Shown here one piece after another: positions 10,097 to 11,461 of a DNA stretch of 64,000 nt. A program made the position numbers and the translations under genes. Source of the stretch: Escherichia coli. GTDB lineage: Bacteria; Pseudomonadota; Gammaproteobacteria; Enterobacterales; Enterobacteriaceae. How positions within the stretch are numbered: the first letter of the stretch is position 1; each line of letters opens with the position of its first letter. The DNA is taken from NCBI RefSeq assembly GCF_048403405.1, contig NZ_CP183129.1; one strand, given 5' to 3'. The notes under the pieces are model-generated. The model was not told where the DNA came from. It was given only the letters and a program-made list of their open reading frames with translations, and made no database searches.

Positions 10097-10540
10097 ATGC
10101 CGTTAAGTCCCTACCTCTCTTTTGCCGGTAACTGTGCCGACGCAATTGCTTATTATCAACGTACGTTGGGCGCTGAACTGCTCTATAAAATCAGCTTCGG
10201 CGAAATGCCAAAATCAGCGCAGGACAGCGCCGAGAACTGCCCTTCCGGAATGCAATTTCCCGATACCGCCATCGCCCACGCCAATGTGCGCATTGCCGGA
10301 AGCGATATCATGATGAGCGATGCTATACCGTCAGGAAAAGCCAGCTACTCCGGCTTTACGCTGGTGCTCGATTCGCAACAGGTCGAAGAAGGAAAACGCT
10401 GGTTTGACAACCTTGCCGCTAACGGAAAAATCGAAATGGCCTGGCAGGAAACTTTCTGGGCGCATGGCTTCGGCAAAGTCACCGATAAATTTGGCGTACC
10501 GTGGATGATTAATGTCGTCAAACAACAACCAACGCACTAA
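10097..10540 (+). CDS. phnB: glyoxalase/VOC-family protein
   Basis: 147 aa ORF; K-12 phnB/yjdN position upstream of phnC. Confidence 0.8.
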   Translation: MPLSPYLSFAGNCADAIAYYQRTLGAELLYKISFGEMPKSAQDSAENCPSGMQFPDTAIAHANVRIAGSDIMMSDAIPSGKASYSGFTLVLDSQQVEEGKRWFDNLAANGKIEMAWQETFWAHGFGKVTDKFGVPWMINVVKQQPTH

Positions 10541-10566
10541 CCCGCCGGGAGGGCCGCCCTCCCGCA

Positions 10567-10628
10567 CTGTCATCGAAATCTCGTTAACTCTTCATCCGTT
10601 AGTCACTTTTAGTTAACAAAATCGTCAC
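10567..10628 (+). promoter_or_regulatory. PhoB-dependent phnC promoter: array of Pho-box half-sites with 11-bp periodicity
   Basis: 7-mers ctgtcat(10567), atctcgt, tcttcat, tagtcac, agttaac, tcgtcac(10622) spaced every 11 bp, followed by -10-like aataat 10629-10634; phnC ATG at 10673. Confidence 0.6.
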
Positions 10629-10672
10629 AATAATCCGCCACGATGGAGCCACTTTTTTAGGGAGGCTGCATC

Positions 10673-11461
10673 ATGCAAACGATTATCCGTGTCGAGAAGC
10701 TCGCCAAAACCTTCAATCAGCATCAGGCGCTGCACGCGGTTGATCTGAACATTCATCACGGTGAAATGGTGGCTCTGCTTGGGCCGTCGGGTTCCGGCAA
10801 ATCCACCCTTTTACGTCACTTAAGCGGTTTGATTACCGGCGATAAATCTGCCGGTAGCCATATCGAGCTGCTGGGCCGCACAGTCCAGCGCGAAGGCCGC
10901 CTGGCCCGCGATATCCGCAAAAGCCGCGCCAACACCGGCTACATCTTCCAACAATTCAACCTGGTGAATCGCCTGAGCGTACTGGAGAACGTGCTGATTG
11001 GCGCGCTCGGCAGCACGCCATTCTGGCGCACCTGTTTTAGCTACTTCACTCGCGAGCAGAAACAGCGCGCGTTACAGGCGCTAACCCGCGTTGGCATGGT
11101 GCACTTTGCCCATCAGCGCGTTTCCACCCTCTCCGGCGGACAGCAGCAGCGTGTGGCGATTGCCCGCGCGCTGATGCAGCAGGCGAAGGTGATTCTGGCG
11201 GACGAACCCATCGCCTCGCTGGACCCGGAATCAGCGCGCATCGTGATGGACACCCTGCGCGACATCAACCAGAACGACGGCATTACCGTGGTCGTCACGC
11301 TGCATCAGGTGGATTACGCCCTGCGCTACTGCGAACGCATCGTCGCCCTGCGCCAGGGGCACGTCTTCTACGACGGCAGCAGCCAACAGTTTGATAACGA
11401 ACGCTTTGATCATCTCTATCGCAGCATCAACCGCGTCGAAGAGAACGCGAAAGCTGCCTGA
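10673..11461 (+). CDS. phnC: phosphonate ABC transporter ATP-binding protein
   Basis: 262 aa; Walker [13 protein letters not shown] signature LSGGQQQR. Confidence 0.92.

Follow-up and report, generated by a model that had tools for sequence, protein, structure and literature searches.

The 11-bp-phased array at positions 10567–10634 of the window, by which we mean the entire 64,000-nucleotide stretch of Escherichia coli DNA analyzed here, is the known PhoB-activated, phosphate-starvation promoter phnC (psiD) of the Pho regulon. Our overall explanation is that this promoter, phnCp, depends on PhoB and sigma-70 and drives the operon for phosphonate uptake and C-P lyase, with a core Pho box and additional PhoB bound upstream of it, and we assign this reading a probability of about 0.72. 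Since both phnCp as a Pho promoter and multi-box Pho promoters (pstS and ugpB) are already known, our analysis is a small refinement, which adds (i) a corrected anatomy, in which the last two of the six 7-mers u1 to u6 form the core, CACGAT, and not AATAAT, is the probable −10, and transcription probably begins near 10651, as well as (ii) three upstream half-sites that are held in register across the Enterobacteriaceae.

The features of the region are listed below, with half-site scores in bits from the matrix described further on.

10544–10565, plus strand: GC-rich stem-loop directly after the yjdN stop, at the upstream edge of the promoter region.
10567–10573, plus strand: u1, 7-mer CTGTCAT, register start 10568 (TGTCATC), 9.09 bits.
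10578–10584, plus strand: u2, 7-mer ATCTCGT, register start 10579 (TCTCGTT), −9.06 bits.
10586–10595, plus strand: conserved block AACTCTTCAT, made up of the tail of u2 and of u3 (TCTTCAT at 10589–10595, a weak TTTCAT-type half-site).
10589–10595, plus strand: u3, 7-mer TCTTCAT, register start 10590 (CTTCATC), 3.73 bits.
10600–10606, plus strand: u4, 7-mer TAGTCAC, register start 10601 (AGTCACT), 5.02 bits.
10611–10617, plus strand: u5, 7-mer AGTTAAC, register start 10612 (GTTAACA), 3.99 bits.
10622–10628, plus strand: u6, 7-mer TCGTCAC, register start 10623 (CGTCACA), 7.37 bits.
10611–10628, plus strand: core Pho box, u5 (AGTTAAC) plus u6 (TCGTCAC), at approximately −40 to −23 from the predicted start, 18-mer score 14.78 bits.
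10629–10634, plus strand: AATAAT, directly after u6, probably the A/T-rich 3′ extension of u6 together with the spacer between the box and the −10.
10639–10644, plus strand: CACGAT, probable −10, from its spacing to the box and its conservation.
10651, plus strand: probable start A (K-12 4325187), an invariant A 7 nt after the putative −10.
10660–10665, plus strand: Shine-Dalgarno sequence GGGAGG, upstream of the phnC ATG at 10673–10675.

According to the ORFs and to the annotation of matching genomes, the gene order in the window is yjdN (phnB), phnC, phnD. The ORFs place the end of yjdN at 10540 (stop codon 10538–10540) and phnC at 10673–11461, followed by phnD, and the 132-bp region between yjdN and phnC, which contains the array, is the promoter of the phnCDEFGHIJKLMNOP operon. 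Positions 10400–10800 find matches, annotated as yjdN and then phnC, in 5,414 of 5,426 complete E. coli genomes. Both the gene order and these matches bear out an earlier sequence-only reading of the window, which had placed the array at the phnC promoter and whose coordinates for the six 7-mers and for AATAAT are exact. Positions were converted to K-12 coordinates as 4335838 minus the window position. The stem-loop at 10544–10565 has a predicted RNA fold of −15.8 kcal/mol (z = −2.0) without a U tract; its stem is retained in other genera despite changed loop and stem bases, and a REP-like sequence stands in its place in some genomes of Enterobacter and Lelliottia. An Rfam scan of positions 10300–10900 returned no match at E ≤ 1.

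To score the individual units, we built a PhoB matrix from the 58 ChIP-seq sites of Fitzgerald et al. (PMC10294691, Table 1), with phnC excluded, pooling 116 half-sites in the TGTCATA register. The training half-sites themselves score from −1.5 to 10.6 bits, with a 10th percentile of 3.3, and every one of them (116/116) has an A at position 5. Five of the units (u1, u3, u4, u5, and u6) fall within this training range, while u2 lies far below it; u2 is not a PhoB half-site, because a G replaces the A found in all 116 training half-sites. The sequence-only reading had proposed six CTGTCAT-related repeats, one every 11 bp across 62 bp, and the register holds throughout, with five repeats scoring as half-sites, but the second repeat drops out at −9.06 bits. 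Scoring each repeat against the matrix thus leaves far more than the first two repeats as half-sites; indeed, u2 is the single failure.

A half-site score of at least 3.7 occurs at 0.95% of window positions, and at least five such scores in six 11-bp-phased slots occur once in ∼128,000 positions (the 64-kb window on both strands), which is this array. The four consecutive phased matches from u3 to u6 are likewise found only here in the 64-kb window. Between 10540 and 10660, all plus-strand half-sites scoring at least 2 are in the phase of the array, except for one marginal match. The phased array is therefore real, with five units and one dead slot (u2), and its single occurrence in ∼128,000 window positions rules out a chance origin. 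Two other uses of the GTTAAC sequence were considered and rejected: as an out-of-phase half-site at 10583 it scores below 2 and sits only 7 bp from u3, and as a GntR/PhnF-type palindrome it is not conserved, being CTCAAC in most genera.

We next scored pairs of units with an 18-mer dimer matrix from the same 58 ChIP-seq sites, whose own scores range from 6.95 to 24.3 bits. At 14.78 bits, u5+u6 has the top dimer score in the whole window on either strand (12.96 bits for the K-12 allele), and the pair scores 10.2–15.0 bits in 28 of 28 Enterobacteriaceae. It also has the form of a Pho box, namely two direct CTGTCAT-like 7-mers with a 4-bp A/T-rich spacer (AAAA) and an 11-bp repeat. The other adjacent pairs in the window strain score 7.85 (u4u5), 6.24 (u3u4), 2.91 (u1u2), and −5.13 bits (u2u3). 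The u3u4 pair reaches 7.0 bits in K-12, where the weakest of the 58 real sites is 6.95, and ∼0.07% of random positions reach 6.2 bits with the dimer matrix. Only u5+u6 scores as a full dimer box, and the functional core is thus the last pair of the array. A functional box made of u4+u5 with AATAAT was rejected, as this pair scores 7.9 bits in the window strain and negatively in the Enterobacter group, and its spacing would be 11 rather than 10 bp.

The phnC promoter was reportedly first mapped by Makino et al. (1991), and Gao & Stock (2015) reportedly lay out its Pho boxes in Text S1 and Table S2. Both genome-wide studies of PhoB in K-12 give one 18-bp motif at phnC (PMC3465305, PMC10294691), which is the u5+u6 pair in each case, written as AATTAACCAAATCGTCAC in the ChIP-chip study (PMC3465305) and as ATTAACCAAATCGTCACA in the ChIP-seq study (PMC10294691). 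The center of the ChIP-seq peak (K-12 4325211; PMC10294691) corresponds to window position 10627, which places it on the core box or slightly downstream and not in the middle of the array. The phnC promoter as a PhoB target, another point of the earlier reading, is supported in K-12 by ChIP-chip, ChIP-seq, EMSA, and RNA-seq (PMC3465305, PMC10294691, PMC6194859). In RNA-seq, phnC RNA amounts to 32,470 in the wild type and 13 in a phoB deletion, a ∼2,500-fold PhoB dependence, and sigma-70 occupancy at phnC is >2-fold lower without PhoB (PMC10294691). The ChIP enrichment score at phnC is 2, compared with 35–38 at ugpB and pstS (PMC10294691). PhoB binding at phnC has also been measured by EMSA and BLI; EMSA gave a KD of 1.7 µM, the lowest affinity of the promoters tested, and among these promoters phnC has the fastest off-rate of PhoB and is the last to come on (PMC4447250, PMC6194859). 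The two genome-wide motif tables and the papers on phnC affinity and timing make no mention of upstream phased units at phnC.

The position of the −10 follows from the core box. At four reference Pho promoters from K-12, namely phoA (TATAGT), phoB (CATAAT), pstS (TATTTT), and phoE (TAAAAA), 9 nt separate the box in its MEME register from the −10, and the same 9-nt rule applied to u5u6 leads to CACGAT at 10639–10644. Within this hexamer, C10639, A10640, A10643, and T10644 (CAnnAT) are invariant in 28 Enterobacteriaceae. With CACGAT, u5+u6 is a box that replaces the −35 and lies ∼10 bp before the −10, an arrangement that does not hold with AATAAT. The −10 of phnCp is therefore likely to be CACGAT, and the start probably lies near A10651, as judged from spacing and conservation. 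A generic sigma-70 scan found no −35/−10 consensus pair in the intergenic region, its sole hit being at 10404–10431 inside yjdN, which is the expected outcome for a promoter without a −35.

The hexamer AATAAT was rejected as the −10, as it could not serve if u6 were bound, it is not conserved, and the reference Pho promoters have their −10 9 nt after the box. Elsewhere in the Enterobacteriaceae, its positions read ATTAAT, ATTGAT, ATTGTT, ATTTCA, ACTTCC, or TTTCGA; position 2 is T in most genera, and only T10631 is invariant among the 28 species. The invariance of T10631 fits the 4-bp extension of the 22-bp PhoB site, which prefers A/T (Gao & Stock, PMC4447250). The sequence-only reading had the array run directly into a −10-like hexamer, and such a string is indeed present at that place, but, being unconserved, wrongly spaced, and directly adjacent to u6, it is unlikely to be a promoter element.

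We then examined the conservation of the upstream units in an alignment of the phnC upstream regions of the window strain, K-12, and 26 other Enterobacteriaceae, which were fetched via PhnC homology. The alignment of these 28 regions is free of gaps from CTGTCAT to the leader. Taking the core of each unit as half-site positions 2–5 and the spacer as positions 8–11, core and spacer conservation amount to 1.49 versus 0.43 bits for u1, 2.00 versus 0.53 for u3, 1.34 versus 0.30 for u4, 1.91 versus 1.11 for u5, and 1.89 versus 1.04 for u6. In u2, the order is reversed (core 0.48 and spacer 1.62 bits), and its half-site score, which ranges from −1.2 to −21.9 across the 28 species, is above zero in none of them. 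Because of this reversal in u2, the cross-species conservation profile of the full array has a flat autocorrelation at lag 11 (r = 0.04), and we therefore claim no global periodic conservation but only the contrast between core and spacer in the individual units. The A at position 5 is invariant in u3 to u6 and is present in 86% of species at u1. With core conservation of 1.3–2.0 bits versus spacer conservation of 0.3–0.5 bits and with gap-free spacing, u1, u3, and u4 are under selection.

Unit u1, which contains the consensus half-site CTGTCATC (10567–10574, plus strand), lies four 11-bp turns (44 bp) upstream of u5. Of the 28 Enterobacteriaceae, 23 keep its TGTCAT/C sequence at an unchanged, gap-free distance, among them Hafnia and Shimwellia, whose flanks are otherwise unrelated; Buttiauxella, Cedecea, and three more have lost it. 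In u4, A10605 is invariant, G10602 is present in 96%, and C10606 in 93% of the 28 species; other genera contain GTAAC, GCAAC, or GAAAC, with scores from −0.3 to 5.95, and in the Enterobacter group the unit drops to ∼0 bits. The u3u4 pair of Hafnia makes a strong box by itself (13.7 bits). No stretch of the upstream array is more strongly conserved in the 28 Enterobacteriaceae than the AACTCTTCAT block, in which A10587 and TTCA at 10591–10594 are invariant. This constraint exceeds what a 3.7-bit half-site needs, and it may be due to another factor or to a particular contact made by PhoB. Among the phnC promoters of distant Proteobacteria, 4–5 phased units are found in Paenalcaligenes, Pollutimonas, Pseudomonas alcaliphila, and Agarivorans, and tandem boxes upstream of phnC thus seem to be a recurrent design outside the Enterobacteriaceae. 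The distant phased units sit ∼85–120 bp upstream of phnC.

The mechanism that we propose would begin with phosphate starvation, upon which a phosphorylated PhoB dimer would bind u5+u6 (10611–10628) head-to-tail. The core box would then substitute for the −35 and recruit RNA polymerase via sigma-70, which would use the weak −10 CACGAT (10639–10644) and start near A10651. For this core part, in which phosphorylated PhoB occupies u5+u6 and sigma-70 polymerase occupies CACGAT, the published binding and expression data, together with the geometry described above, make us highly confident. Further PhoB would occupy the upstream half-sites on the same helical face, as a dimer on u3+u4 and as a dimer or monomer anchored on u1, and would stabilize the occupancy of the weak core box and sharpen the response, in the manner of the tandem pstS and ugpB boxes. 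From phasing and conservation, we consider it somewhat probable that such additional PhoB on u3+u4 and at u1 stabilizes the core box. Points that speak against it are the u3u4 dimer score, which is no better than that of the weakest real ChIP site, the decay of u4 in the Enterobacter group, the low affinity and low ChIP enrichment of phnC, the location of the ChIP-seq peak center, the one motif given by each genome-wide study, the flat lag-11 autocorrelation, and the excess conservation of AACTCTTCAT. Cooperative binding of several PhoB dimers, which the sequence-only reading had suggested, is plausible, given that the cores of u1, u3, and u4 persist from genus to genus.

A bolder extension, which we regard as speculative and doubtful, would have the units u4, u3, the dead u2, and u1 act as a cooperative ladder, imposing a high threshold of phosphorylated PhoB and producing a steep, late switch. 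The late place of this costly 14-gene operon in the temporal hierarchy of the Pho regulon would then depend on the architecture of the array and not on how tightly a single box binds PhoB, and AACTCTTCAT would hold a PhoB monomer on a nonconsensus slot via protein-protein and minor-groove contacts.

Three other readings of the array were weighed against ours. PhoB might bind u5+u6 only, with the upstream units being kept for a second regulator, DNA curvature, a UP-like contact, or signals at the 3′ end of yjdN, or else being inert weak decoys. In favor of such a single box, only u5u6 lies within the score range of real sites, the published motif tables name one site, the ChIP-seq peak center is over the core box, phnC is the weakest PhoB binder of the tested promoters, many E. 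coli PhoB sites are transcriptionally inert (PMC10294691), and the constraint on AACTCTTCAT goes beyond the needs of a PhoB half-site. However, the conserved bases are exactly those that specify PhoB (the A at position 5, the TCA core, and the G at position 2 in u4), and the upstream units lie at strict 11-bp multiples from the core, without gaps, in 23–28 of 28 genera. Moreover, five of six phased matches are found only here in the window, and u3u4 is a full-strength box in Hafnia. We consequently judge the single box unlikely, although it is the most serious of the three alternatives.

That all six repeats bind PhoB as three dimers, with the array abutting a true −10 at AATAAT (10629–10634), is in our view very improbable. 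The equal spacing of the six 7-mers and the agreement of AATAAT with TATAAT at 5/6 positions speak for it, but u2 scores −9.1 and is not conserved, and PhoB on u6 would cover −19 to −13 of a promoter with this −10, while the boxes of the four reference promoters end 9–10 bp before the −10. Further, AATAAT is replaced in other genera, whereas the CAnnAT located 10 bp downstream is invariant. A different register, with the box CTGTTAG-TCAC-TTTTAAT (in K-12; window 10597–10614) and a −10 at CACAAT (10626–10631), is what we take to be the classical phnC assignment. It profits from the invariance of A10627 and T10631, by which CACAAT or CACATT retains A2 and T6, the key bases of a −10; these two bases are, however, already explained as positions 5 and 9 of u6. 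Its half-sites, with T at position 4 and G at position 6, are strongly penalized, no 18-mer of at least 6 bits starts there, positions 10597–10600 vary across genera (the window strain has CCGTTAG), and both ChIP studies chose u5u6, so that we give this register almost no credence. Our preferred reading remains a core box at u5+u6 with additional PhoB on the upstream units.

Over the phnC promoter, the window strain is 95% identical to K-12, with five substitutions within 41 bp (10578, 10581, 10597, 10612, and 10618), all of which are outside the half-site cores. K-12 and five other diverse E. coli strains share the other allele, and the window strain carries a minority haplotype. With these changes, u5 scores 4.0 bits in the window strain compared with 2.1 for the K-12 allele, and the core box scores 14.8 instead of 13.0 bits (∼1.8 bits up). 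Across 10400–10800, approximately 270 of 5,416 genome records share at least 99% identity with the window, and these may reflect the haplotype of the window strain.

Elsewhere in the window, two overlapping in-phase PhoB-like 18-mers, AATAACCACTCTGTCACA (13.1 bits) and TGTCACAAGTCCATCACA (14.2 bits), amount to three phased half-sites at 45602–45630, a short way into a 430-aa ORF (45551–46843) from its 5′ end. The published ChIP-seq table (PMC10294691) contains no PhoB peak at the matching K-12 position. Another PhoB-like 18-mer, ATTAATCGTTCTGTAATA, is located on the minus strand at 61771–61788 and, at 14.4 bits, is second in the window to the phnC box.

If the upstream units are functional, they would help to explain the combination of ∼2,500-fold induction and late onset at a promoter that has the lowest affinity of the five studied by Gao & Stock. 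Beyond annotation, the significance is little, as phnCp is a textbook Pho-regulon promoter, and one real PhoB box with three conserved, weaker upstream half-sites on the same face of the DNA is ordinary for its class.

Among known systems, pstS (two boxes) resembles phnC in having 11-bp-phased half-sites upstream of a promoter-proximal box, its four units scoring 10.6, 10.6, 4.9, and 8.6 bits. The ugp promoter, described as having 'multiple PHO boxes' (PMC4415409), contains phased units of 5.8, 9.1, 5.5, −1.9, and 9.1 bits at ugpB, followed by more, and thus includes one dead slot, like u2 of phnC. Both differ from phnC in that several of their adjacent pairs reach 12–24 bits, with ChIP enrichment of 35–38, while phnC has one such pair and an enrichment of 2. 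OmpR, which belongs to the same response-regulator family as PhoB, fills three tandem dimer sites on one face of the DNA in a hierarchical order at ompF (F1-F2-F3) and ompC (C1-C2-C3); with another regulator, another motif, and a 10-bp repeat, it offers a mechanistic analogy only. Both the layout and the logic proposed for phnC recur in the class III 'complex operators' of Streptomyces coelicolor PhoP, which are arrays of up to six 11-nt direct repeats, some of them poorly conserved (PMC2275107). There, the regulator is PhoP (Actinobacteria) and the unit is of the GTTCACC type, and the protection of weak units was footprinted, whereas at phnC it is inferred. The S. coelicolor complex operators fill cooperatively from their conserved core units (PMC2275107).
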